A stretch of DNA of 64,000 nt from a virus: UHGV virus genome UHGV-1384413, one strand, 5' to 3'. A program made the position numbers and the translations under genes. The notes beneath the pieces were generated by a model. The model was not told the origin of the DNA. It saw only the letters and a list, made by a program, of their open reading frames with translations, and did not search any database. Shown here piece by piece: positions 5,243 to 28,021 of the stretch; positions within the stretch are counted from its first letter, which is position 1; every line of letters begins with the position of its first letter.

Positions 5243-5315
5243 GAGTTGTCTCTTGTGCTCTGTAGGTGAAGAAATCTTATCAAGTGCCTCGACAGATGTC
5301 AACCTCAAAAACGTA

Positions 5316-5344
5316 TTGACTTTACTATAAATCCACGATATAGT
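5316..5344 (+). promoter_or_regulatory. sigma70-type promoter in divergent intergenic region
   Basis: TTGACT, 17-bp spacer, TATAGT about 40 bp upstream of ATG 5385; approximate coordinates. Confidence 0.5.
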
Positions 5345-5384
5345 GCACCCATTCGAAAGAAAACGAACACAGGAGCACTTAATC

Positions 5385-6284
5385 ATGGCAAATCTTAACA
5401 GCTTTAGCACTCGGTGGAAACAAGATATCACAACCAATCTCTCAGCAGGTGATATCCTTTCTGCAATTTACGAGGCTTTGGATGATAAAGCTACTTCAAA
5501 ATCGGTTTGTACCAACCCGCTAATTCCTATAGTAATGAAGGTTATTGAGCGTAGGCTGGTATCCGGATCTGATAAGTGGACATATCTGGATAATGGAGGC
5601 CACACTTACTCCAATGGCTATGTCGATATAAAAGTAGAATATGCGGTATCATATCGCCGGAGCGGCTCTGTAACTTTCAACTTCTCTGGTGGTTTCCGAT
5701 CTCTGGCAACTTCACCTTTTGTTTCCTCAGAGGAGAAGTTTGAACTTCCGTTCCTTTGGATGATGGCTAACGCGACAGGCAAAACCCCCGTAAGCATTCG
5801 CGTAAAATACAACTACAACGGATCTAGTAAGATCTATGCCGAGAGTGTCTCAGCAAGTTTTTATTTTGTGATGGGGGATGGAATCCTCAAACATATAAAG
5901 ATGTGCGATATGCATGATGTTATAAATGAAGTGACTGATAAGAATGTTCTGGTGAAGGATCTCAACAATTTTTATACACCTGGAGACTATTACGTCAACC
6001 GTCCACTGTGTATCTTTAATGCCGCACACCCTTTAGGTGAGTATCTGATCGCCAATAGCGATATTGCCAATAACCGCTTCGAGGTAGCAAGAGTGCAGAA
6101 TGAGGTGTTGACATCTTGCAAGAGCGGTGATAAGTTTACCGAAGAAGAGATGGGTGTTTTAGAAATGATGGGATATAAGTGTAGCCTTTGGGTGGATGAG
6201 GTGTTTAATGACGGCATCTACGGACAGGGTATTTACCCGTTAAAGAAGTATACTGATTCCAGTCTAATTTACGCGGAGATTTGA
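5385..6284 (+). CDS. hypothetical protein (299 aa)
   Basis: ATG at M15 of track ORF preceded by AGGAG; first gene of plus-strand operon. Confidence 0.55.
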   Translation: MANLNSFSTRWKQDITTNLSAGDILSAIYEALDDKATSKSVCTNPLIPIVMKVIERRLVSGSDKWTYLDNGGHTYSNGYVDIKVEYAVSYRRSGSVTFNFSGGFRSLATSPFVSSEEKFELPFLWMMANATGKTPVSIRVKYNYNGSSKIYAESVSASFYFVMGDGILKHIKMCDMHDVINEVTDKNVLVKDLNNFYTPGDYYVNRPLCIFNAAHPLGEYLIANSDIANNRFEVARVQNEVLTSCKSGDKFTEEEMGVLEMMGYKCSLWVDEVFNDGIYGQGIYPLKKYTDSSLIYAEI

Positions 6285-11995: not shown

Positions 11996-13201
11996 ATGAT
12001 TTTCATCTACGAACATTTCAAAACTCGTAAAGAAGCACGTGACCGCCGTGCAGAGCTTGAGAAGAAGGGTTTCACATGCGCTATTGAGAAAGGTAACACA
12101 ACCTGGACACTGGCAGTGGGTGCCCCAGAGTTGTTCGATCCTGACCGTGACAGCGTCTGCTACACCCGTGAGGATTTTGAAACCCGTGAAGAGGCCCGTT
12201 TATTTCGATATGGGCTGGAAGATAACGGTAAGTACGCCATGATCTTAGACTTAGGAGAAGGTTCCGTTAAACGTTGGAGCGTGGTATATCCACTGTGTGT
12301 TGTTCACGGTGTAGGGTTCACCGGGGTAGCAATCAAATCAGAAGAGCCTTCGGTAGAAGTCAAAGATCCGGTGCTGGAGGTGGTGAGTAGTGTGTCTCAA
12401 CAACAGACCCGAAGCATCGAGCCTTTGGTGGTTATTTGCGGGGAACTCCTCCAGATCACCTGCAACGAAGGTATTTTTGAAATTCGCCGCAGTGAAAGTG
12501 AGGAAGTTTACCAGAAAGTCTTCGACCATATCTCTGTTCAGGAATATGACGAGGCAATTGGTGAAATCCTTGTCTGGTTGGAACGCAAGAATGAGTTCAC
12601 TACACTTGCAGACAACCTAATCATGAAAGATGGTAAGCTCTACTACTACGGTGTAGAGATGCGATCCACCATTGCAAAGAAAATTGAGAAAGATTATGCA
12701 GACGGAACACTGGATGACCGCTATGTGAAATTCCTCGTTCGCCTGCTACGCAATCCTTCTGCAAAATCTGTAAACATGCTCTACGATTTTATGCAGGCAA
12801 ACGACATTCAGATTGCAGAAGATGGTCGAATCATTTGCTACAAAGGGGTTCAGTTTAACGGCGACAAGTGGGTGGATTGGCACAGTGGTAAAGTCCCACA
12901 ATACCAGGGAGCTTTTGTATCCATGCCTCGTAACTTTGTAGAGGATGATCCGGAAGCTGCATGCTCTTATGGTCTGCACTGTGCCAGCAAAGAGTATGCA
13001 AAGAGCTACGGCACTGTGATGACGGTTATGGTTGACCCTGCCGATGTAGTCAGTGTACCTTACCAACACAACAGCGCTAAGTGCCGTGCATGCCGCTACG
13101 AAATCGTAGTAGCTCCAGAATCGCGCAAAGATGGAGACCCAATCGAGTACGTGGTTGACCGCGACGGTAACACTATCGACATTATCTACGAGGAGGCGTA
13201 A
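11996..13201 (+). CDS. hypothetical protein, possible rIIB-like partner
   Basis: ATG at M13 of track ORF with AAGGAGA RBS; lies directly downstream of the rIIA-like gene; assignment is positional only. Confidence 0.4.
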   Translation: MIFIYEHFKTRKEARDRRAELEKKGFTCAIEKGNTTWTLAVGAPELFDPDRDSVCYTREDFETREEARLFRYGLEDNGKYAMILDLGEGSVKRWSVVYPLCVVHGVGFTGVAIKSEEPSVEVKDPVLEVVSSVSQQQTRSIEPLVVICGELLQITCNEGIFEIRRSESEEVYQKVFDHISVQEYDEAIGEILVWLERKNEFTTLADNLIMKDGKLYYYGVEMRSTIAKKIEKDYADGTLDDRYVKFLVRLLRNPSAKSVNMLYDFMQANDIQIAEDGRIICYKGVQFNGDKWVDWHSGKVPQYQGAFVSMPRNFVEDDPEAACSYGLHCASKEYAKSYGTVMTVMVDPADVVSVPYQHNSAKCRACRYEIVVAPESRKDGDPIEYVVDRDGNTIDIIYEEA

Positions 13202-14571
13202 TGGAAAAAGGGCAGTACGATGTAGGCACAGATGCTGCCCTTGTTGCAATCATGAGTGGTGAGAATGTCTTCGTAAGCGGACCTGGTGGGACCGGGAAGA
13301 CATATCTTATCAACATGATCCAGTCCATGTATGGAGACTCTTGCATAACGGTTGCCCCGACAGGGGTAGCCGCTTTAAACGTTAATGGAGCAACAGCTCA
13401 CCGAACTTTCGATCTTGCCGCAGGTGTGAGCATGGAGTCAGACTGGACAGCGATAAGGGCAAAAACAGCAAAGCCTCTGAAAAGCAAGGCATTTACCATT
13501 CTAATTATCGATGAAATCTCTATGATCCGTGCTGACAAGTTCATAGAGATGGATAGAAAACTCCGCTTTCTTCGGAAAAATGACAAACCTTTCGGAGGCA
13601 TTCAGGTGCTATTGTTTGGAGATTTCTACCAAGCACCTCCAGTTGTCTCTTCCATGGAGAAGGAAGCCTACTTCAACTTCTACCACACAGACCTGTGTTG
13701 CTATACAGAATCCTGGGAGGATCTTAATCTTCACAACATAGCCTTAGTAGACCAGTTCCGTCAGGAATCTGTTCGCTTCGCCACAATGTTGAACTGTGTT
13801 CGTGAAGGCCGTCGCATAAAAGAGGTTGTGGCAGAGCTTAACACCCGTTGCTATCATGGTGGTGTCCCAACAGATGCCTTGACCATCTGTGCCACCAATA
13901 AGCAAGCAGAGGAGGTGAACAGACGTTTCTATGATGCCATCAAGGCCCCAGAGAGGACCTACATTGGTAAAATGAAAGGTAAGTTCCCTTCCACACTGCC
14001 TGTGGAGCAGGAAATGAGGCTGAAGATAGGTATGAAGGTTATGATAACCTCAAACGATGTTGACCCTACTCATAAAGTTCCGTATTATGTCAACGGGACA
14101 CGTGCCACAGTGGTAAAATTCAAGACCAAATCCGTGGTAGTTGAGCTAGAAGACGGAACACAGGTTGAAATTGAGCCGAGATTGTGGGAGAATAACGAGT
14201 ACAAACCTTCCCAGAGGTACAATATTGCCGAAAGGAAGATGGAGAAGTTTATAGAGAGGGTTGTGATCGGATCTTATGAGCAACTTCCTTTGAAATCTGG
14301 GTACGCAGTAACATCGCATAAAAGTCAAGGACTTACGTTAGATTGTTACAACCTAGACCTCGGAAAGAACGGAGCTTTCTCTCCCGGAATGACGTATGTT
14401 GCCTTGAGTCGGGTTAAGACGATACAAGGAATAAACTTGTTGCGTCCATTAAGAGAGGTGGATATTATTGTTGACCCGAGAGTCGTAGAGTTTTATAATA
14501 CAACTTTCCCTGGCTTAGACGAGAAAGTCAGGAAAGATTTTGAAACTAGAGCAGAAAAGGGGGACGTATGA
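13201..14571 (+). CDS. SF1 DNA helicase, Dda/RecD-like
   Basis: Walker A VSGPGGTGKT; DEISM Walker B; 456 aa. Confidence 0.7.
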   Translation: MEKGQYDVGTDAALVAIMSGENVFVSGPGGTGKTYLINMIQSMYGDSCITVAPTGVAALNVNGATAHRTFDLAAGVSMESDWTAIRAKTAKPLKSKAFTILIIDEISMIRADKFIEMDRKLRFLRKNDKPFGGIQVLLFGDFYQAPPVVSSMEKEAYFNFYHTDLCCYTESWEDLNLHNIALVDQFRQESVRFATMLNCVREGRRIKEVVAELNTRCYHGGVPTDALTICATNKQAEEVNRRFYDAIKAPERTYIGKMKGKFPSTLPVEQEMRLKIGMKVMITSNDVDPTHKVPYYVNGTRATVVKFKTKSVVVELEDGTQVEIEPRLWENNEYKPSQRYNIAERKMEKFIERVVIGSYEQLPLKSGYAVTSHKSQGLTLDCYNLDLGKNGAFSPGMTYVALSRVKTIQGINLLRPLREVDIIVDPRVVEFYNTTFPGLDEKVRKDFETRAEKGDV

Positions 14572-16210: not shown

Positions 16211-16975
16211 TTGAAATTTATCTACAAAGAACACTACCACAAAGGTGTTGTGTGGAGTCTATTTGACGGGTCTGGTGGTGCAGTTATTGACTGGGCAAAA
16301 GCTGGGTACCTGTGCCTGTGCTTTAATGCAGAAGGTGCTGACCACGGTAGTTATGCAGAGGTGATAACCGATCATCCTAACATTCACTATGTGGATTATT
16401 GGATTGATCCATGGTTCCCTCAAGAAACTTTTTGCATGTATCCAGCTCCAGACTTTATTCTTGCATTTCCTCCGTGCACGCATTTAGCAGTATCCGGAGC
16501 TGCACACTTTAAGAAAAAGCTGGCTAAGGATCCTCTGATCCAAATTAATGCTGTGAAAGATGCTCGGGTTGCAGAAGAGTTGGGAGAGATTTACGATTGC
16601 CCGTGGCATGTAGAGAACCCTGTAGGAGTTATGTCAACACTGTGGCGAAAACCTGATTACCGTTTTCATCCTTCGGATTATGGCGGGTATTTACCAGAGG
16701 ATGATGTAAACCCATGGTTTCCTGAATTTATAGCTCCACGTGATGCCTACCCAAAAATAACTTGCGGTTGGATAGGTAATGGATTTATAATCCCCGCCAC
16801 AAAACCTGTCCCGCAAATAGTTGATGCGGTTAGCGGTTATTCCATGCAACACGCTAAGCTAGGTGGAAAGAGTGCAAGGACGAAGATGATTCGAAGCCTT
16901 ACACCACGTGGCTGGGCAAGAGCTGTATTCTTAGCAAACGAGCCTGCAGTAAGGAGAAGAATTAATGGGCAGTAA
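16211..16975 (+). CDS. C5-cytosine methyltransferase-like protein
   Basis: Motifs in canonical order: I LFDGSGG (FxGxGG), IV FPPCTHLAVSG (PC catalytic Cys), VI HVENPVG (ENV); no in-frame ATG before motif I, so TTG start with AGGAG RBS chosen; track GTG start lies inside the terminator hairpin. Confidence 0.5.
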   Translation: MKFIYKEHYHKGVVWSLFDGSGGAVIDWAKAGYLCLCFNAEGADHGSYAEVITDHPNIHYVDYWIDPWFPQETFCMYPAPDFILAFPPCTHLAVSGAAHFKKKLAKDPLIQINAVKDARVAEELGEIYDCPWHVENPVGVMSTLWRKPDYRFHPSDYGGYLPEDDVNPWFPEFIAPRDAYPKITCGWIGNGFIIPATKPVPQIVDAVSGYSMQHAKLGGKSARTKMIRSLTPRGWARAVFLANEPAVRRRINGQ

Positions 16976-19043
16976 ATTCATGGCATCTGCATACAACCGT
17001 TTCGGTGAGCCAAACCCGAAAGCAACTAAGTATAAAAGTGGGGGAAGTGTGAAACGAGACTATCGTGATGAAAAAGAAGTTGAAACTGTAGAGACTGTTT
17101 TAGAAAATACTAAAATTGTCCCTGTTCCACAACAAAATATTGGACTGATGGCTGCACAATATTTTGGTGTACGATCATCGCTATCTCAAGAGGATGGTGT
17201 AACTGTTACTGCCACCTACTTCCCGTATTATGACCGCTACGGTAATCTATCCGGCTTTAAAAAGCGGGACTGGACAATCCCTAAAGAGCAAAGGGGCCAT
17301 TTCTCGGTTGTTGGCATAGTAAAGGCCAACTCCCAAATGTTTGGTCAAAAGCTGTGTGCATCCTCCAACAACCGTAAGCAGATTAACGTTTGTGAGGGAG
17401 AAGGTGATGTTATTGCAGCATGGCAGGCTGCATATCAGGTGCAAGTAAAAGGAATTCTCACCAATGCTAAAGCCCCAGCGAAGGTGAAGCAGTGGGCTAA
17501 AGAGGTCCAGGATGGGATCGATGCAGTTATCAACGGCGGCGATCTTGCAGGAAAACCCTGCCTACCTTTTGTTGGAATTAACTGCGGGTGTGCAAACGCA
17601 GTAGACACTTTTGCGAACAATGAGAAATTTATCCGTAGCTACGGAACAGTGGTCCTTGCAATGGACAACGATGCAGCTAACGAGGTAGAGAAGCAAAAAC
17701 ACGTTATCAAAGGTGTTGAAGCCACACATAATATCGCAGCATTTTTGATGGCTGATAACGTTTACCACGTGGAATACCCAGGTGAGGTAAACGACCCTGA
17801 TGGTGTAAAAGATATTCGTGACATGCTGAAGGCTAAAAAGCTGGAAGATATTGTCAACATGTTCCGTCACCCAGTCAAATATGTGCCTGATGCTGTATCT
17901 GATTTAGAAGACTTCTCCATTGAATCTCTTCGTAAGAAGACTTCCAATGGCGTGGATATTAGTGCAGAGTTCCCTAAACTGCAGAAGATGCTGAAAGGAC
18001 TCCACAAAGGCACCTTGATGATGCTGACAGGCCCGTCTGGCGGTGGTAAAACAACTGTAGCCAAGAAGCTGGAACATTGCATTGCAAGATACTTGATGGA
18101 TCCAACATGCCCTAAAGCTGATGATTATGAAGAGGATGATCGCCTGTGCCTGATTCACCTTGAAGAGGATCCTGAGGAAGCAATCAACTCTCTGTACGCT
18201 AACCAGCTGGGGTTTGATGTTAAAGAGTTTGTTGAAGACCCCAGTCAGTTCCTGACCGATCAGGAGCACGCTGAGATTCATCAATCTTGGGCCAAGGCCG
18301 GAAAAATCAAAGTGTTCAAGCATTTCGGCTCCATCCCTGTAGATGAGCTGATCACTAAGCTTAAACAAATGGTGTGCCTGTATCACTGCCGTTACATTGT
18401 GCTGGATCACTTGTCTATGGTGATTTCAGGGCTTAATGTTAAGGATGAGCGTAAAGAGCTTGACATGGCTATGACTCAACTAGCCGCGTTCTGTAAGCAG
18501 TTTAATGTGTTTATCTTGGTGATTGCTCACCTGAAGCGCACAGAGATTGTACCTCCGAAGGATAAGGATGGAAATCCGTTACCTTTCTGGTACCCTGTAC
18601 GAAAAGAGAACCTTCGTGGTAGTGCCGGATTGGAGCAACTTAGCTGGGTGGTTGTCGGGGTAGAGGCAGAGGAGATGGTGGATCGTTCCCGTGGACGTGT
18701 CCGACTGGTAGGTCTTAAAAACCGCCCAGCAAAAACCTTAGGTATTGCAGACACTCTAGTTATGGATCCCCACACAGGCAAGTTCCATGATGCCAGCAAC
18801 TGGTACTGGGACAAAGAAATGCAGATGTTTACAGACGGGGAAGGTGGGGAGGTTGTTTGGAGACCTCAGGCTATGTTTGAGGATCAGGAGCATGCAGTTG
18901 TAGAAACACCTGTAGGCAAGGTTGTGGCTGATAAGGTTATAACCCCTGCTGTTAACCCTGTTGACACACAGGAAGATCTTCAGTATGATGATCCGTCCTC
19001 TAACCACGTTCCTGGTTTTGAAGACGACGAAACACCTTTTTAA
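16965..19043 (+). CDS. primase-helicase (Toprim primase plus DnaB-like helicase)
   Basis: 692 aa; N-terminal acidic Toprim-like motifs (CEGEGDV, LAMDNDAANE); Walker A LTGPSGGGKTT in C-terminal half. Confidence 0.75.
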   Translation: MGSKFMASAYNRFGEPNPKATKYKSGGSVKRDYRDEKEVETVETVLENTKIVPVPQQNIGLMAAQYFGVRSSLSQEDGVTVTATYFPYYDRYGNLSGFKKRDWTIPKEQRGHFSVVGIVKANSQMFGQKLCASSNNRKQINVCEGEGDVIAAWQAAYQVQVKGILTNAKAPAKVKQWAKEVQDGIDAVINGGDLAGKPCLPFVGINCGCANAVDTFANNEKFIRSYGTVVLAMDNDAANEVEKQKHVIKGVEATHNIAAFLMADNVYHVEYPGEVNDPDGVKDIRDMLKAKKLEDIVNMFRHPVKYVPDAVSDLEDFSIESLRKKTSNGVDISAEFPKLQKMLKGLHKGTLMMLTGPSGGGKTTVAKKLEHCIARYLMDPTCPKADDYEEDDRLCLIHLEEDPEEAINSLYANQLGFDVKEFVEDPSQFLTDQEHAEIHQSWAKAGKIKVFKHFGSIPVDELITKLKQMVCLYHCRYIVLDHLSMVISGLNVKDERKELDMAMTQLAAFCKQFNVFILVIAHLKRTEIVPPKDKDGNPLPFWYPVRKENLRGSAGLEQLSWVVVGVEAEEMVDRSRGRVRLVGLKNRPAKTLGIADTLVMDPHTGKFHDASNWYWDKEMQMFTDGEGGEVVWRPQAMFEDQEHAVVETPVGKVVADKVITPAVNPVDTQEDLQYDDPSSNHVPGFEDDETPF

Positions 19044-19101: not shown

Positions 19102-21879
19102 ATGAGTATGTGGTCTTTCGATTTTGAGGCCTCTGGCCTGCTGGAAGATCCAGATCTTTATTATCACTGCGGTTTGTTTAAAGAGTTGAATAAGAACCGT
19201 TTTATGCTGTTCCTTCCTCTAAATGACCGCACACACTACTCTGAAGAGGATGTGGAGAAAGCTAAGAACTTCATTCTGGCAAAGAAGACCCTTTATACAG
19301 ATTTTGATGTTCGCATAGCAGATTTTTCAGAGTTGGAGGGTTGGCTTACAGGTAACTCAGACTGGTCACCTACAGCTTTGAACTGTCATAACTGCTACAG
19401 CTACGACTTTATGCTGATGGAGAGATTATCCGGTATTCATTTTGATATGTTCCGTGATCCTAAATGCATGGGAACTATCAACGACCACCAGGTTAATCTG
19501 TTTGATACGTTAGCGATGAGTCGAATCTTGTGGCCTGACCGCCCTTTGCCAAAAGGTTGTCCGGACGCAGTATTCAATCCAGTTACCAAGAAAATGCAGC
19601 CTGTTGGACCTCATGGTCTTATGGCATGGGGCTATGCCCTTGGTAACCAGAAAGTTCAAATCGATGACTGGCGTGAGCTTCCGCTGTGGAAGTATGTGGA
19701 TCGTGTGTTCGAGGACGTTATCATTCAGGAGTTGCTCTGGAAGGAGTTGGTAGCGGAATCAAAAGGTGTATTCTACGGCAAATCTGACATGCAGAACTTT
19801 ATGTACGATCCTGCCAAAGAGAAGCCGAAAGGCTTCAAGAAGATCACCTGGAAGAACGCATTACGCCGAGGCATGTTACAGCACTTCCTGATGGAGCTGC
19901 AGGCTCGACAGGGGGTGTATTTCGACATAGATGGGGCTATTGCTTTACGTGACCGTTGCGATGCGTGGATGAAAGAGATCGCTGATCGTGTTGAACCACA
20001 ACTTCCTTTAAAAGAGCTATCAATGTCTCAGCGGCCTAAGTTTCCTGAAAAGCCGTTTAACCAGGATGGGACAATCTCCAATAATGGTTGGAAATGGTTA
20101 AAAGACAAGCTTGGCTACCCTGTAGACATGAGTGCTTTAGAGTTCAAAGCTCCTCCTAAGCGAGCATTTACCTCCACAGGGGATGTAAGTAAGATGGGGA
20201 TAAAATGGTGTGAAGAGATGGGCTGTAAAGACCCCGATAAGATGGCTGATTTCTTAAGGGGGTATATCAAAGGAACTTCTACACCACACCCTTTACCTAA
20301 AGAGCTGATGGATCAGGCGATAAGTGACCTACAGCAGAAGCGAATGCCTGACTGCAAGATACCTATGAAAATCAGCAATCAGGACGACATCAAGCGATAC
20401 CTGATCAGTGCTGGTTGGCTCCCAACAATGTGGAGAACTAAGGATGTAACTAAGGACAGCAAGAAGAAAGCTTTACCTGATGCAGATGTTGATGCACGAG
20501 TATATGCATATATGGACGAGCTTTTGGAGTCAGAGTATTGTGACCTAATTATCAACTTCTGGAACAAAACTGATGCTAAGTTTCAGACAACTGTACATAA
20601 GTTCAGAAGCTTCCCTAACTCTGAAAGAATTAAAAAGGAAGTGTTCGGGAAAATACGTAGAAAAGCCAGAGCGCTTATTACTTCTCCGCAACTGAAAGAT
20701 ACGTTTGGACACCTATGTCCGAATCTTGAAAAATTGAACGGAGAGATGGCTAAAGATATCGTTTTGTGGTTATCATTGCGAAACCGCAGATCGGTCCTTG
20801 ATCCAATCAAGGAAGATAAGGTCGATACTGGTCTTCTTAATCATCCACGTTTGAAGATTGACCACAAGCTTCCTGCTAAAAGTTCTGGATTAACAAACAC
20901 TTCCAGACAGAAACATAGTATTTGTGCAAACATGCCTAAACCATCTCCTAAAGTGGTTATGGGTAAAGAGATGCGTAGTCTGTGGGGTGTTCCTCCGGGA
21001 TACTTTGAGATCGGTATTGACGGATCCAACTTAGAGCAACTCATCGGGGCCTGGGGTGCCTTTGAGTTTGACAACGGTCTGTATTATGATGTTGTAAGTA
21101 ACGGGGACGCGCACCAAAACAATGCTGAGGCATATACAAAAGTAGCAGGTAGAGAGGTGTCTCGTAACGATGGTAAACCTATCACGTATGGGGTTATGTA
21201 TGGGGCACAAAAAGATAAAGTTGCAGATATGCTGGATATCTCTCCAGAACTGGGGCAGAGAGTAATTGATGCTCTCTGGGATGCCAACCCAGGTCTTAAG
21301 GGGCGCAAAGAGGATCTGGAGAAATTCTGGGAAGCAACAGGTAAGAAATTTATCTACTCTTTTGACGGGCATGCCATTTGGACCCGCTCTAAACACTCTT
21401 TGCTTAATGCATATCAGCAAAATGGCGGTGCATCGTTGTGCGACTTGGTCGGAATCCTCATGCACCACCAAATGGTGAAGCGTGGATGGTATGATGAAGG
21501 TGTTCGTCGTATTATTTATTACCATGACGAATATCAGCTTCAAGTGCCTGACACCCCTAAGTATAAAACTGTATACACCTTCGACACAATTGAAGAGCTG
21601 GAAACATTTAAGGCCAAGCAGGAGGCTAAACTTCATGTGTTCGACGGTCATAAGTACAAAAAGGCACGCAAGGATGAGGATGGAAACGAAGTGGTTGACA
21701 AGGACGGAAATACGGTATATGATCCTATCTTGAATGATGACGGAAAGCTTGAACTTATCTGGAGCCCTGTGGGCGAAATGGTGGTGCATTGCTTCTGGCA
21801 GGCTTCTAAAATGATGGGCGTTCCGTTCCAGATCACAGGTGAATACTTGTGCGGTCGTAACTGGGGCGATTGTCACTAA
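19102..21879 (+). CDS. DNA polymerase, family A, with 3-prime-5-prime exonuclease domain
   Basis: 925 aa; Exo I-like FDFEASGL; motif B-like KPITYGVMYGAQ; motif C YYHDEYQLQV. Confidence 0.85.
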   Translation: MSMWSFDFEASGLLEDPDLYYHCGLFKELNKNRFMLFLPLNDRTHYSEEDVEKAKNFILAKKTLYTDFDVRIADFSELEGWLTGNSDWSPTALNCHNCYSYDFMLMERLSGIHFDMFRDPKCMGTINDHQVNLFDTLAMSRILWPDRPLPKGCPDAVFNPVTKKMQPVGPHGLMAWGYALGNQKVQIDDWRELPLWKYVDRVFEDVIIQELLWKELVAESKGVFYGKSDMQNFMYDPAKEKPKGFKKITWKNALRRGMLQHFLMELQARQGVYFDIDGAIALRDRCDAWMKEIADRVEPQLPLKELSMSQRPKFPEKPFNQDGTISNNGWKWLKDKLGYPVDMSALEFKAPPKRAFTSTGDVSKMGIKWCEEMGCKDPDKMADFLRGYIKGTSTPHPLPKELMDQAISDLQQKRMPDCKIPMKISNQDDIKRYLISAGWLPTMWRTKDVTKDSKKKALPDADVDARVYAYMDELLESEYCDLIINFWNKTDAKFQTTVHKFRSFPNSERIKKEVFGKIRRKARALITSPQLKDTFGHLCPNLEKLNGEMAKDIVLWLSLRNRRSVLDPIKEDKVDTGLLNHPRLKIDHKLPAKSSGLTNTSRQKHSICANMPKPSPKVVMGKEMRSLWGVPPGYFEIGIDGSNLEQLIGAWGAFEFDNGLYYDVVSNGDAHQNNAEAYTKVAGREVSRNDGKPITYGVMYGAQKDKVADMLDISPELGQRVIDALWDANPGLKGRKEDLEKFWEATGKKFIYSFDGHAIWTRSKHSLLNAYQQNGGASLCDLVGILMHHQMVKRGWYDEGVRRIIYYHDEYQLQVPDTPKYKTVYTFDTIEELETFKAKQEAKLHVFDGHKYKKARKDEDGNEVVDKDGNTVYDPILNDDGKLELIWSPVGEMVVHCFWQASKMMGVPFQITGEYLCGRNWGDCH

Positions 21880-21930: not shown

Positions 21931-22215
21931 ATGGTAGTAGAACCAACAAAAACATTTACCTCCATGACTATCCCTGTCATTATGCAGGTAGAGTGCGTTC
22001 AGGTGTCCCAAGTGTGGCCCGGTACTAAAATTCCAACAGGGCCTGATTTCTTTCAGGTCGGCAAAGTGTATAATGTCTGGAAGGCACCGGATTGTTACCC
22101 TTTCATTAAAGATGACCGTGGAATGTTATGGTATCTGGGGAATGATTTGACACTGCATCTTGGAAATGCTATTATTGCAGTGTTCCGGCTCAACAAGAAG
22201 GAGACAGATCAATGA
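21931..22215 (+). CDS. hypothetical protein, paralog 1 of 3
   Basis: 94 aa; shares GKVY..W....D..G..WY motif with next two genes. Confidence 0.5.
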   Translation: MVVEPTKTFTSMTIPVIMQVECVQVSQVWPGTKIPTGPDFFQVGKVYNVWKAPDCYPFIKDDRGMLWYLGNDLTLHLGNAIIAVFRLNKKETDQ

Positions 22216-23345: not shown

Positions 23346-23374
23346 TTGACAACAGTGATGGGGCCTAATATAAT
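23346..23374 (+). promoter_or_regulatory. sigma70-type promoter
   Basis: TTGACA, 17-bp spacer, TATAAT; approximate coordinates. Confidence 0.5.
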
Positions 23375-23678: not shown

Positions 23679-24079
23679 TGAAAAACATTTGGGATATTAA
23701 TATCTTTGAAGCCTCTGAGCTTGACGGTGCCGATGGGGTTATTATAGTTTCTGATGGAAAGGCAACACTGACCTCTGGACTGACCTATGAGGACACTACC
23801 TACGCACTGGGAGATCTTGCCTTGTTGAAATCAACAGGTGACTCTCTGGAAGAACGTCTGCAAGGATTTGCCTTTAAAGAAGGCACAAGCACCACACTGA
23901 TGTGCACTACACGCACTGTTCAGTTGGGCAACGGGGTCTATATGGTCATTGCAGTGTGCCCCAAATTTAGCAACATCAATAAAGATGATGCTGACGCTGT
24001 CAACGACGTGGTTGTCCTCTTCGTTGGTGACGCTATGGCAGATCTGATGAATGCAGGAGAAGCAGCAAATGAAGACTGA
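23678..24079 (+). CDS. hypothetical protein
   Basis: ATG overlapping upstream stop (TGATG). Confidence 0.5.
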   Translation: MKNIWDINIFEASELDGADGVIIVSDGKATLTSGLTYEDTTYALGDLALLKSTGDSLEERLQGFAFKEGTSTTLMCTTRTVQLGNGVYMVIAVCPKFSNINKDDADAVNDVVVLFVGDAMADLMNAGEAANED

Positions 24080-24371
24080 AAACATCAACCCAACAGGATT
24101 CTTGAAAGTATACCGTGAACTGCTGTATACTACAGAAGATAGTGTTCTAGAGTATCCAGAATATCTTTTGCTGTATAAGTATCTACAGGAAGCTGGTGAA
24201 AATCTACCAGTTAGTGCAGAAGGCGGTCCGAACTGGATATACAGCGCATGGAGAAAGGTTGACATTCTCCCAGATCCAGGAAAAGATATGGTAGTTTGGC
24301 AGCTTATCAACAACATCGGGATTCCAATCTTTGATGAGGCTGTTAAAATCTATTTTGAACTTGACGATTAA
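24069..24371 (+). CDS. hypothetical protein
   Basis: ATG at M7 of track ORF with AGGAGA RBS. Confidence 0.45.
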   Translation: MKTENINPTGFLKVYRELLYTTEDSVLEYPEYLLLYKYLQEAGENLPVSAEGGPNWIYSAWRKVDILPDPGKDMVVWQLINNIGIPIFDEAVKIYFELDD

Positions 24372-24717: not shown

Positions 24718-25083
24718 ATGGAACAAATGAACGATCAAGCGTCGGTTGCGATGAACGAGCAAGAACAACCTCAAGAATTTTTCTTAGGGTTAAGTAAAGA
24801 TCAAGTGTCTCTTCTGCTAGTGCTTTCTTCTTTCATGGGAAGACTTCAGGAGCTTACACAACAGCCAGAGGCTGAACAATTATTCCAGGCTCTGCGTGAA
24901 GAAGAAAAATATCGTCGTTTGGACTATGCCTTAGGTTGGGTAGCTCAACAACGAGATATGCTGATGGCCCTCTCTGGGACCACAAGTTTTGCAATGGGCC
25001 TGTTGGCTCAAGTTCAGGACAAATTAATTCAAGCAGGGTTTGCACACACGGCAAACACTAACGAAGAACAAGGAGATAAATAA
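24718..25083 (+). CDS. hypothetical protein
   Basis: ATG at M38 of track ORF with GGAGA RBS; upstream part of track ORF is Cys/Leu-rich and lacks an RBS. Confidence 0.45.
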   Translation: MEQMNDQASVAMNEQEQPQEFFLGLSKDQVSLLLVLSSFMGRLQELTQQPEAEQLFQALREEEKYRRLDYALGWVAQQRDMLMALSGTTSFAMGLLAQVQDKLIQAGFAHTANTNEEQGDK

Positions 25084-26309
25084 TGAGCGTTATTCAACAA
25101 TTCGCTAACCCGATGAATCCGCGTGAAACTGTTTTACTGGCTCACGGCATGATTAAACGTGTCAGCATCAAGCCTATCAAAGGTGCTGATCCTACAACAG
25201 GTATTAAAACCACTGTGTGGCAAGGTAAGAAAATTGAATCCAGCCACACCATCTCTTTACTGATTTCTGAACTGGATTCCTCTGATAACCTGCTTCAAGG
25301 TGGTGAAGAAGTTTGGATCAGTATGGGTGATAAGCTGCTTAAACCGGGTCATCAAGACTCTGTCTCTGTTAAAATTGATGACAAGTGGGAAACTGTAACG
25401 CCAGGATGGATCGTAAATATCCCTTTGAAGGCAAACGAGCATAACGGTAAGACCTATTACAAAGGCTCCCTGGCTAAGATGGTCAAGCTGGGTGCAGGAG
25501 AGGCTCCAGCAGCGACTCAGCAGCAAAAACAGCAACAAGGTGCACAATCACAAGGCCAGAAGCAGAAACCTCAGCAGAATGCCAATCAGGACGTTTTACG
25601 CATCTATGGCGATGTGACTCAGATTGTTGGCAACGTGGTTACTGTCAATGATCACAAGATTGGTGAAGGTGCTATGGTTGTCTCTGATGAGCAGCTTAAA
25701 GACCTGGTGGTAGGTGGTCGTGTTGCAGCTATTGTTGACAAAGACACCGGGAATATTATCAGCGGTTTTAAAGCCTACCCCCCAAAGGCAGAGAACAGCA
25801 CTCAAGGCTCTGGTGGTAAGCGTAAATCTTCTTATGATCCTATCGGTGTAGAAACAGGGCATAGCATCAATGCGTTGCAAATCATCCTGGATCGCGGGTT
25901 TAAGGTAGACAATCCTTTAGACGTGGCTAAAACACTACACGTTGTCACCATTGAGCTTAAGAAAGAGTACGCTCAAGCCACCAACCGAACTGAAGATGAA
26001 GTAGGTGCCAGTGTTGGTAATGCGGTATTGAACGCTTGTCGCCGTATTGACAAGAAAACGAAAGTTGACGATTTTGCAGTAGCAATTACTGCAGAAGCAA
26101 AAGATGTCTTGACTAATCTTGCTGAACCGTTGTATGATTGGATCAAGAACGGTGCTGGGGCCACTGACCATCAAGAACCTCAAGCTGCCAAACAGGAGGC
26201 CGCTCCACAGCAAAACACTGTAGACGCTCCTCCTGTAGATGATGGGGAAGACGACCCTATGGATCAGAATCCAGCACAGTACGCCTTTGATGATGACATT
26301 CCTTTTTAA
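25083..26309 (+). CDS. SSB-like protein with E. coli SSB-type C-terminal tip
   Basis: 408 aa; ends in DDDIPF, the E. coli SSB C-terminal tip as I recall it; Gln-rich linker; N-terminal domain not recognisably OB-fold by eye. Confidence 0.5.
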   Translation: MSVIQQFANPMNPRETVLLAHGMIKRVSIKPIKGADPTTGIKTTVWQGKKIESSHTISLLISELDSSDNLLQGGEEVWISMGDKLLKPGHQDSVSVKIDDKWETVTPGWIVNIPLKANEHNGKTYYKGSLAKMVKLGAGEAPAATQQQKQQQGAQSQGQKQKPQQNANQDVLRIYGDVTQIVGNVVTVNDHKIGEGAMVVSDEQLKDLVVGGRVAAIVDKDTGNIISGFKAYPPKAENSTQGSGGKRKSSYDPIGVETGHSINALQIILDRGFKVDNPLDVAKTLHVVTIELKKEYAQATNRTEDEVGASVGNAVLNACRRIDKKTKVDDFAVAITAEAKDVLTNLAEPLYDWIKNGAGATDHQEPQAAKQEAAPQQNTVDAPPVDDGEDDPMDQNPAQYAFDDDIPF

Positions 26310-26324
26310 CATCTAGTTAACATA

Positions 26325-26353
26325 GCCCTGCCCGAAAGGGTGGGGCATTTTTG
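26325..26353 (+). terminator. intrinsic terminator (copy 2 of duplicated hairpin)
   Basis: Same GCCCTGCCC-gaaa-GGGTGGGGC hairpin as near 16166, followed by T-run. Confidence 0.65.
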
Positions 26354-27147: not shown

Positions 27148-27573
27148 ATGATTTATGAAATGCCAAAACTGATTCGTGACGATGCACGAAACGCCCACAC
27201 CTTTATTATGGGCAAGCGCATGGATATTATTTGTCACAAAGACTTCTGGGAAGGGAGCTACTTCACAGAATATTTTGGAAAAATGGATGATGGCCTACTG
27301 ATCCAGTTTTACACCGATGCGGAAAACAACATTAGTTGGGAGTTCGAGACCGAAGATATCCATAAACTTTTCACCTTCCTAGACATTAAGGTTAAGGCCA
27401 AGTTTGAAGAAGGTGAGTGCGACGATTGTGGATTTTATGAGGTAACAGATTTCTATCTTCCGAGCGGTAAAAACCTTTACTATGAAAGCCACTTCGGTAA
27501 CTCCAATATGCCACAGTGCTGGACTGAGTTTTTTGAAATTGTGGAAGAGGAGCTGGAATATCGTGATTATTGA
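27148..27573 (+). CDS. hypothetical protein (141 aa)
   Basis: ORF with GGAG RBS; immediately upstream of macro-domain gene. Confidence 0.5.
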   Translation: MIYEMPKLIRDDARNAHTFIMGKRMDIICHKDFWEGSYFTEYFGKMDDGLLIQFYTDAENNISWEFETEDIHKLFTFLDIKVKAKFEEGECDDCGFYEVTDFYLPSGKNLYYESHFGNSNMPQCWTEFFEIVEEELEYRDY

Positions 27574-28021
27574 TACTGTGGAGGGAGATTTAATCTCCCT
27601 TTTTAAGAGCGGTGCTGGTCACCTGATCCACGGTTGTAACTGCTTCCACACAATGGGTAAGGGTGTAGCGAAACAGATTGCCCGTGAGTTCCCTCAAGCA
27701 TTGGAAGCTGATAAAATGACTATGCACGGTTGCCTAAGTAAACTGGGCGCGTTCTCCCGCTGGGAGCACTTATCTCCGAGAGGTATTGTCTACGGAATAA
27801 ATCTGTATACTCAGTTCTACCCAGGGCCTAATGCTGAATATTTCTCAATACTGAAAGGCTTTGAGCGAGTCAATGAAGTATTTGAGGGGTCGATTTTACC
27901 ATTCTACATCCCTAAGATCGGGTGCGGCATAGGTGGTTTGAAGTGGGAACATGTAGAGGACATTATTAACCTTGCCACTTTTGATATAGATATTATCGTG
28001 GTGGAGTACAAAGAGTGTTGA
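27563..28021 (+). CDS. macro-domain protein, TARG1/DarG-like
   Basis: GDLISLF...HLIHGCNCFHTMGKGVAKQI and IPKIGCGIGGLKWEHV collinear with TARG1/OARD1-type macro motifs as I recall them; start set at in-frame GTG (V28 of track ORF) overlapping upstream stop. Confidence 0.6.
   Translation: MIIDTVEGDLISLFKSGAGHLIHGCNCFHTMGKGVAKQIAREFPQALEADKMTMHGCLSKLGAFSRWEHLSPRGIVYGINLYTQFYPGPNAEYFSILKGFERVNEVFEGSILPFYIPKIGCGIGGLKWEHVEDIINLATFDIDIIVVEYKEC

Follow-up and report, generated by a model that had tools for sequence, protein, structure and literature searches.

The plus strand of UHGV virus genome UHGV-1384413 carries, at 25083..26309 of the 64,000-nucleotide stretch analyzed here (the window), a gene for a 408-residue protein whose last six residues, DDDIPF, are the same as those of Escherichia coli SSB (single-stranded DNA-binding protein). 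The locus raises the question of what a phage protein with this tip does: whether it is a divergent phage SSB or a mimic that competes for host SSB-interacting proteins, both of which the first-pass annotation proposed. A predicted oligonucleotide/oligosaccharide-binding (OB) fold, a disordered acidic tail carrying the SSB-type tip, a location in the replication module, and the failure to find another SSB support the first of these proposals and lead us to consider it likely that the gene encodes the phage's own replicative SSB, belonging to a very divergent SSB family (PHROG 4477). The core of this interpretation is not new, having already been published, as prediction and genetics, for the 98%-identical ortholog Bas52_0087.

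The gene, its tip, and the replication module

The gene is an open reading frame (ORF) of 408 codons with an ATG start, and its product terminates in DQNPAQYAFDDDIPF, followed by TAA. The stop codon directly follows the last residues, NPAQYAFDDDIPF (C-terminal AFDDDIPF), and Phe408 therefore bears a free C-terminal carboxylate. The tip (amino acids [aa] 403 to 408) is encoded at 26289..26306 on the plus strand, and the pattern [DE][DE][DES][ILVM]PF has this single site, 26289-26306, abutting the stop, in all six frames of the window; the antisense strand over 25083-26309, in the matching register, has many stops. As judged from sequence, a chance origin of the tip is excluded, mainly because of its conservation: of 118 family representatives, each standing for one cluster at 50% identity, 91 terminate in an acidic stretch followed by [ILV]PF. 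Across an alignment of 31 sequences, in which identity goes down to 30%, P407 and F408 never vary. Reading of the ORF and this conservation confirm what the first-pass annotation had said of the tip, and its estimate that the protein is over twice the length of bacterial SSB was also correct (408 aa versus 178 aa for the E. coli SSB chain 1eqq_A).

The window derives from an rV5-like myovirus, a Vequintavirus. The DNA of the gene is 95 to 97% identical to 114 near-full-length matches in a phage collection, nearly all from rV5-like Vequintavirus, and the annotated records listed among those matches label it "hypothetical protein"; its orthologs include Bas52_0087, rV5 gp209, and bas48_0087 of the curated BASEL phage CarlMeissner (Bas48). 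It lies on the same strand as, and about 3 kb downstream from, genes for a PIF1-like helicase (13201..14571, +; Pfam PIF1, E = 1.8e-33; also annotated in Bas48), a 692-aa primase/helicase with a DnaB-type helicase domain (16965..19043, +), and a 925-aa family-A DNA polymerase (19102..21879, +). The last of these matches Pfam DNA_pol_A with E = 9e-8 and 31.8 bits, just below the gathering cutoff of 34.3; Bas48 carries it under the label DNA polymerase, and it figures in the rV5 paper as well. Homologs of the SSB-like gene also lie near the DNA polymerase gene in phiTE, VIK251, and ESCO5.

The curated Bas48 genome has 235 features, among them polymerase, primase/helicase, helicase, ligase, exonucleases, Endo VII, and ribonucleotide reductases, and none of them is labeled SSB; the rV5 genome paper likewise names none (PMC3606486). 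When 1,038 ORFs from the window and from Bas48 positions 1-50000 and 63679-88905 were compared with three queries (an E. coli SSB sequence, T7 gp2.5, and an OB profile of T1-like SSBs), all E values exceeded 0.09; this search spanned about 83% of a genome equivalent, with Bas48 ~114,600-137,623 (the last ~23 kb) lying outside it.

A Shine-Dalgarno sequence, AAGGAG, can be read at 25070..25075 (+), with a 7-nucleotide spacer before the ATG. Because the TAA of the upstream gene overlaps the start codon (TAATG), translation of the SSB-like gene is probably coupled to that gene; the strong Shine-Dalgarno sequence together with coupled translation would be consistent with a protein required in quantity. 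Downstream, at 26325..26352 (+), there is an intrinsic-terminator-like hairpin with a 9-bp stem containing seven G-C pairs, a GAAA loop, and a following T-run; its fold energy is -19.1 kcal/mol (z = -2.8), and it is conserved in relatives. An Rfam scan around the gene gave no match. Two small genes lie upstream (24051-24371 and 24718-25083, both +), one of which matches DUF7238 (E = 4e-7). The translationally coupled upstream gene, of 121 aa, has 31% identity with its VIK251 counterpart; the idea that it is a conserved partner was dropped, its conservation being limited to close genera.

Predicted fold and place among SSB families

An AlphaFold2 model of the full-length protein, built on the 31-sequence alignment, has five parts: an N-terminal domain, a linker, a small barrel, a four-helix domain, and a disordered tail. 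The N-terminal domain (aa 1 to 138; 25083..25496, +; isoelectric point [pI] 9.1) is all-beta and, when modeled alone, has a predicted local distance difference test score (pLDDT) of 89.9 and a predicted template modeling score (pTM) of 0.82; its closest structural neighbors are mainly SSB-family OB domains. The modeling establishes, as a high-confidence prediction, an OB fold of the nucleic-acid-binding kind, homology not being established thereby, and the doubt in the first-pass annotation as to whether the N-terminal region is an OB fold proved unfounded. Residues kept across the family in this domain are G22, H55, W77, G82, W102, G108, E119, and the hairpin N-G-K-T-Y-Y (121 to 126). We infer that the domain is the module that binds single-stranded DNA (ssDNA).

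A disordered Gln-rich linker follows (aa 139 to 170; 25497..25592, +; pLDDT 25 to 34), with Gln at 13 of its 32 positions and a length that differs among the aligned homologs. Such a linker had been noted from the sequence alone as preceding the acidic tail; it exists but is situated between the first two folded domains and not directly before the tail. The second of these domains is a small beta-barrel (aa 171 to 232; 25593..25778, +; pLDDT ~80 to 85), OB-like, with five strands in the order b1-b2-b3-short helix-b4-b5. It is absent from short-form relatives of ~250 to 300 aa, including P0056-P0060. Foldseek gave weak matches to IF1 and proteasome Rpt OB domains (65 to 73 columns, query position not given).

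The four-helix domain (aa 253 to 355; 25839..26147, +; pLDDT ~90) is the most conserved block of the family, with G259, H260, N263, H286, G308, and G312 as conserved residues. It is followed by a disordered acidic tail rich in Pro and Gln (aa 356 to 402; 26148..26288, +; pLDDT 31 to 42), the sequence of which diverges among the aligned homologs; residues 357 to 408 are rich in Pro, Gln, Asp, and Glu, with 13 Asp plus Glu versus 1 Lys plus Arg and a pI of 4.05. With the full-length model as the query, Foldseek found nothing in the PDB below E = 0.01. A likeness of the helical domain to sigma region 2 was too generic to use.

By sequence, the protein belongs to phrog_4477, annotated as "unknown function" in PHROGs (E = 6.5e-172; residues 1 to 408 against profile positions 1 to 393 of 393), as do the phiTE, VIK251, ESCO5, and metagenomic homologs. 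The family has members among the rV5-like, phi92-like, and phAPEC8-like myoviruses, as well as in many uncultured phages; a word-indexed search placed it in 60 clusters at 90% identity, and an exhaustive HMMER search yielded the 118 representatives at 50% identity. The majority of its members are of the short form, 250 to 300 aa, without the middle block.

Pfam gave no SSB match for the window protein (E <= 10) or for any of 103 diverse members (E <= 0.01), the latter giving scattered single matches and no relevant family, and no NCBIfam SSB model matched the window protein. In the homolog ESCO5_00088, the NCBIfam SSB model matches the last 42 residues only. A whole-family profile run against PDB sequences matched E. 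coli SSB through the tail only (eppvDdfDddiPF with EPPMDFDDDIPF); its one other match was to an acidic tail of HMGB1. A tail-free N-domain profile found no SSB among PDB sequences, giving sub-threshold matches to cold-shock-protein OB domains only, apart from an ornithine transcarbamoylase match judged to be chance; in a collection of 5.8 billion proteins, the same profile found four unnamed proteins and no named relative. The HHalign probability was 7.5% against a profile of T1-like phage SSBs and 0.2% against T7 gp2.5. Weak single-protein matches to PIN_9, DCX2, a salivary D7 protein, and SprB in Pfam, NCBIfam, and PDB searches were regarded as noise. A few depositors name distant homologs "single-stranded DNA-binding protein"; these labels are most likely tail driven, because in the homologs scanned the match to SSB models is confined to the final ~40 residues. 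PHROG 4477 is therefore outside every named SSB family by sequence and SSB-like in its fold, architecture, tail, and context.

Comparison with known SSBs bears out this mixed character. Like bacterial SSB (PF00436, TIGR00621), the window protein combines an OB-fold DNA-binding domain, here a predicted structure, with a disordered linker and an acidic D-D-D-[IL]-P-F tip bearing a free carboxylate; unlike bacterial SSB, it has an OB domain without detectable sequence homology, and to this are added a further beta-barrel and the conserved four-helix domain, both of which are absent from bacterial SSBs. T1-like siphovirus SSBs (PHROG 44; morffagbaw CAI9420970) resemble it in having an OB-type SSB core, a Gln-rich linker, and a PPMDFDDDIPF tail, they have a similar hairpin (E-Y-N-G-K-x-Y), and their tip codons are a site of the same endonuclease insertion, described below, but they are only 140 to 165 aa long and have no helical domain. 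The likeness to T7 gp2.5 lies in being a phage-encoded, here predicted, OB-type SSB that serves a family-A polymerase and a DnaB-type primase-helicase.

Acidic PF tails and the endonuclease gene at their codons

The primase/helicase of the window carries a second acidic tail ending in PF, GFEDDETPF, with its last seven codons at 19020-19040. The same enzyme ends in EDDWDDAAPF in phiTE, where the SSB-like protein ends in MDWDDDVPF, and in DMDDDTPF in the Salmonella phage KE23 (Seunavirus). In T7, as in the window phage, both the SSB and the primase-helicase have an acidic tail with a terminal Phe; the tails read from the T7 record are EADEDGDF for gp2.5 and DWSNDTDF for gp4, and both dock on the DNA polymerase. 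The T7-type pairing, with acidic tails on the SSB-like protein and on the primase/helicase of a family-A polymerase replisome, is found here. By analogy, the family-A polymerase would be the docking partner of both acidic tails, and the primase/helicase tail is a candidate co-user of the docking site of the tip. Because the primase/helicase has a similar tail, in parallel to T7 gp4 and gp2.5, the tip may serve the phage's own T7-like replisome, besides or in place of the host SSB interactome.

In many relatives, the SSB-like gene is interrupted by a 207-aa gene placed precisely after its Phe codon and before its stop, for example, at 5244-5867 of a metagenomic Vequintavirus contig (L002) and at 121386-122009 of rV5 (NC_011041; gp208). 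The insertion is also present in JES2013, and Bas48 and Bas52 are free of it. The window is without this gene, and the equivalent site is 26306/26307. The insertion appends ~15 residues past IPF, APVGLQYGKSRIHAL, removing the free C-terminal Phe; the extension in relatives, including the type phage rV5 (gp209), is APIGLQYGRSRIYAL or variants of it, and this capped form also takes in one cluster, at 90% identity, of 533 sequences. The inserted gene opens inside the extension, in a different frame, and makes use of the TAA and the terminator already there. The extension was consequently rejected as part of the SSB-like protein, being the 5' end of the inserted gene in the other frame. In rV5 gp209 (L014 258-1529), which is capped, the tip reads FCDDIPF in place of FDDDIPF, with one Asp changed to Cys, and the uncapped variant P0005 likewise has DFCDDIPF.

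Depositors have named the inserted gene endonuclease, endonuclease VII, or HNH endonuclease, and its protein is 95 to 99% identical in 32 phage records and 80 to 90% identical in 20 more. Pfam does not recognize it; its assignment as an endonuclease comes from depositors' annotations and from an HNH-type motif read by eye in the morffagbaw endonuclease. The same zinc-finger-like N-terminal module and a similar extension follow PPMDFDDDIPF of the T1-like siphovirus SSB (morffagbaw, OX538565; L010 1038-1941) and DMDDDTPF of the Seunavirus primase/helicase (Salmonella phage KE23, PP856722; L011 1-1962). One endonuclease lineage has therefore settled behind the acidic-PF tip codons of three gene families that are unrelated to one another, a pattern suggestive of homing to tip-coding DNA.

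Endonuclease genes recur at the 3' end of the SSB-like gene. In phiTE, a different gene (phiTE_001, L007 15218-15721), likened by depositors to a putative HNH endonuclease of Felix O1, abuts the 3' end of the homolog, the tip of which stays terminal (MDWDDDVPF-stop). In the Klebsiella phage VIK251, the homolog (VIK251_00040, L008 14001-15221) has a 15-residue extension, APIGLPYGRNFIHCI, after DDDIPF and no endonuclease gene downstream, the next gene being a tail fiber gene on the opposite strand; this extension is perhaps the remnant of a lost insertion.

Other features of the region were recorded as well. A Macro domain (Pfam PF01661, E = 2e-7) is present in a 179-aa ORF at 27482-28021 (+), into which the ORF before it (27148-27573) extends; host defense systems that act by ADP-ribosylation could have their modification undone by a phage macrodomain. 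Between 21800 and 28200 there are 20 sigma-70-like promoter matches, nearly all on the plus strand, versus 11.3 expected from shuffles; one of them, at 23346-23374, fits the consensus perfectly (12/12), and those at 22147, 22911, 27000, and 28018 fit it at 11/12.

DRT10 genetics, a possible mechanism, and competing explanations

The ortholog Bas52_0087 (QXV84166.1) of Escherichia phage RudolfGeigy is identical to the window protein at 398 of 408 positions, without gaps; it comes from a different phage isolate and has the same flanking genes and the same FDDDIPF end. A preprint dated 30 April 2026 describes it as an SSB-like trigger of the reverse-transcriptase defense system DRT10 (UG17), which Bas52 escapes via D252V or Y351C in this protein, and reads it as having two OB folds, a disordered C terminus, and an E. 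coli-like tip, with D252 and Y351 at a "putative oligomerization interface" (bioRxiv 10.64898/2026.04.29.721553). In the same work, wild-type Bas52_0087 supplied in trans strengthens DRT10 restriction, and the dosage of exonuclease I (ExoI; SbcB) modulates DRT10 (bioRxiv 10.64898/2026.04.29.721553). The preprint contains no biochemistry, family survey, fold statistics, primase/helicase tail, or endonuclease insertions. The window protein has both residues. D252 (codon 25836-25838), which 88 of the 103 family members keep, is at the N-terminal edge of the four-helix domain, and the last helix of that domain contains Y351 (codon 26133-26135). That both escape mutants are missense and not knockouts is consistent with an essential gene.

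Taken together, these observations would fit a mechanism in which the N-terminal OB fold, which is basic, engages the ssDNA exposed at the replication fork of the phage, with a possible contribution from the small second beta-barrel in the long form. The four-helix domain may then join subunits or make binding cooperative, a role suggested by its conservation and by the DRT10-escape substitutions D252V and Y351C, which flank it or fall within it; oligomerization would probably be through this helical domain, unlike the OB-OB contacts of bacterial SSB. The long disordered acidic tail would display DDDIPF, with its free Phe carboxylate, as a docking peptide for two kinds of partners, which are plausible together and not mutually exclusive: the phage's T7-like replisome, in which the primase/helicase has a similar TPF tail, and host readers of the E. 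coli SSB tip, such as ExoI, RecQ, PriA, and the chi subunit of Pol III. The need for the protein in the triggering of ExoI-controlled DRT10 would be explained if it engages ExoI or ssDNA 3' ends.

Several points weigh against assigning the protein as the replicative SSB. At the sequence level, none of the tests against known SSB families succeeds (Pfam, NCBIfam, HHalign, and, except for the tail, the PDB profile), and in the remaining part of the genome the absence of a second SSB rests on annotation only. ssDNA binding, oligomerization, and contact between the tip and a partner remain predictions for the protein and its ortholog alike. The E. coli SSB tip requires a free carboxylate. The free IPF terminus is probably not essential, because capped-tip phages (rV5 and many relatives) are viable, which speaks against models with an indispensable tip; if the tip of the phage protein likewise needs a free carboxylate, the tip would not be essential for replication. 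Bas52_0087 expressed alone, moreover, does not trigger DRT10 and is not toxic together with it, enhancing restriction during infection (bioRxiv 10.64898/2026.04.29.721553).

The mimicry raised at the outset would make the protein a decoy and not a replicative SSB, its tip titrating or redirecting host SSB partners (ExoI, RecQ, PriA, RecO, Ung, and others) so as to shut down host DNA transactions or shield phage ssDNA ends. The tip is indeed the same as that of the host, the last 9 to 11 residues (PPMDFDDDIPF) equal those of E. coli SSB in many relatives, and there is a genetic link to an ExoI-controlled system, for which the preprint likewise raises the idea of a mimic in competition with SbcB (bioRxiv 10.64898/2026.04.29.721553). 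For a decoy, however, the conserved OB fold and the conserved helical domain would be needless, and the gene lies in the replication module of a phage in which no other SSB candidate was found. The similar tail on the primase/helicase points instead to a docking code internal to the phage, phages with a capped tip are viable, and host viability is unaffected by the ortholog alone, which argues against strong titration of essential partners (bioRxiv 10.64898/2026.04.29.721553). We therefore regard a decoy, whether it disables host functions or protects phage ends, as unlikely.

A protein with an N-terminal OB fold and a helical domain also brings to mind recombination proteins, acting either in strand annealing, like T7 gp2.5, or as a mediator, like RecO, which has both of these parts; yet the RecO alignment is limited to the OB part (70 to 94 residues), RecO reads the SSB tip instead of bearing one (PMC7913777), and the HHalign result gives no profile similarity to gp2.5. 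Annealing, besides, would come as an extra function of an SSB and would be no true alternative. This explanation appears quite improbable. The SSB of phage N4 activates late transcription, and the present protein could similarly be a transcription factor that combines ssDNA binding with sigma-region-2-like helices acting on host RNA polymerase. The structural scores behind that likeness are typical of generic helical bundles, several with root mean square deviations of 9 to 14 Å, Pfam gives no sigma-domain signal, and the escape mutants and genomic context point to DNA metabolism; we would be very surprised if such a role were correct. The assignment as the phage's replicative SSB is the reading we favor.

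A broader extension of the replicative-SSB assignment is speculative and, in our estimate, rather unlikely: the acidic PF tip might act as one docking code read by two audiences. Within the phage replisome, the SSB-like protein and the primase/helicase would apply it to the family-A polymerase, as in T7. As an exact copy of the host SSB tip, it would in addition draw ExoI and further partners of host SSB toward phage ssDNA or off it, which the ExoI-gated DRT10 system would detect. The endonuclease insertions, by capping the tip with 15 residues, would then make tip-off variants in phage populations that alter the engagement of host partners and sensing by SSB-directed defenses.

SSBs are central to phage replication and are sensed by retron Eco8, DARNA, AbpAB, Hna, DRT9, and now DRT10. 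The value of the present results lies in confirming and extending the April 2026 preprint, to which they add the statistics of the OB fold, the breadth of the family, the tail-only basis of existing SSB labels, the primase/helicase tail, and the tip-targeting endonuclease lineage. For rV5-like, phi92-like, and phAPEC8-like E. coli phages, which have no annotated SSB beyond a few tail-driven labels, a likely SSB role for PHROG 4477 would fill this gap and correct hundreds of "hypothetical protein" annotations. The family would thereby represent an SSB-type tail on a folded core without sequence similarity to known SSBs, with the mutations that permit escape from defense located in its extra helical domain.

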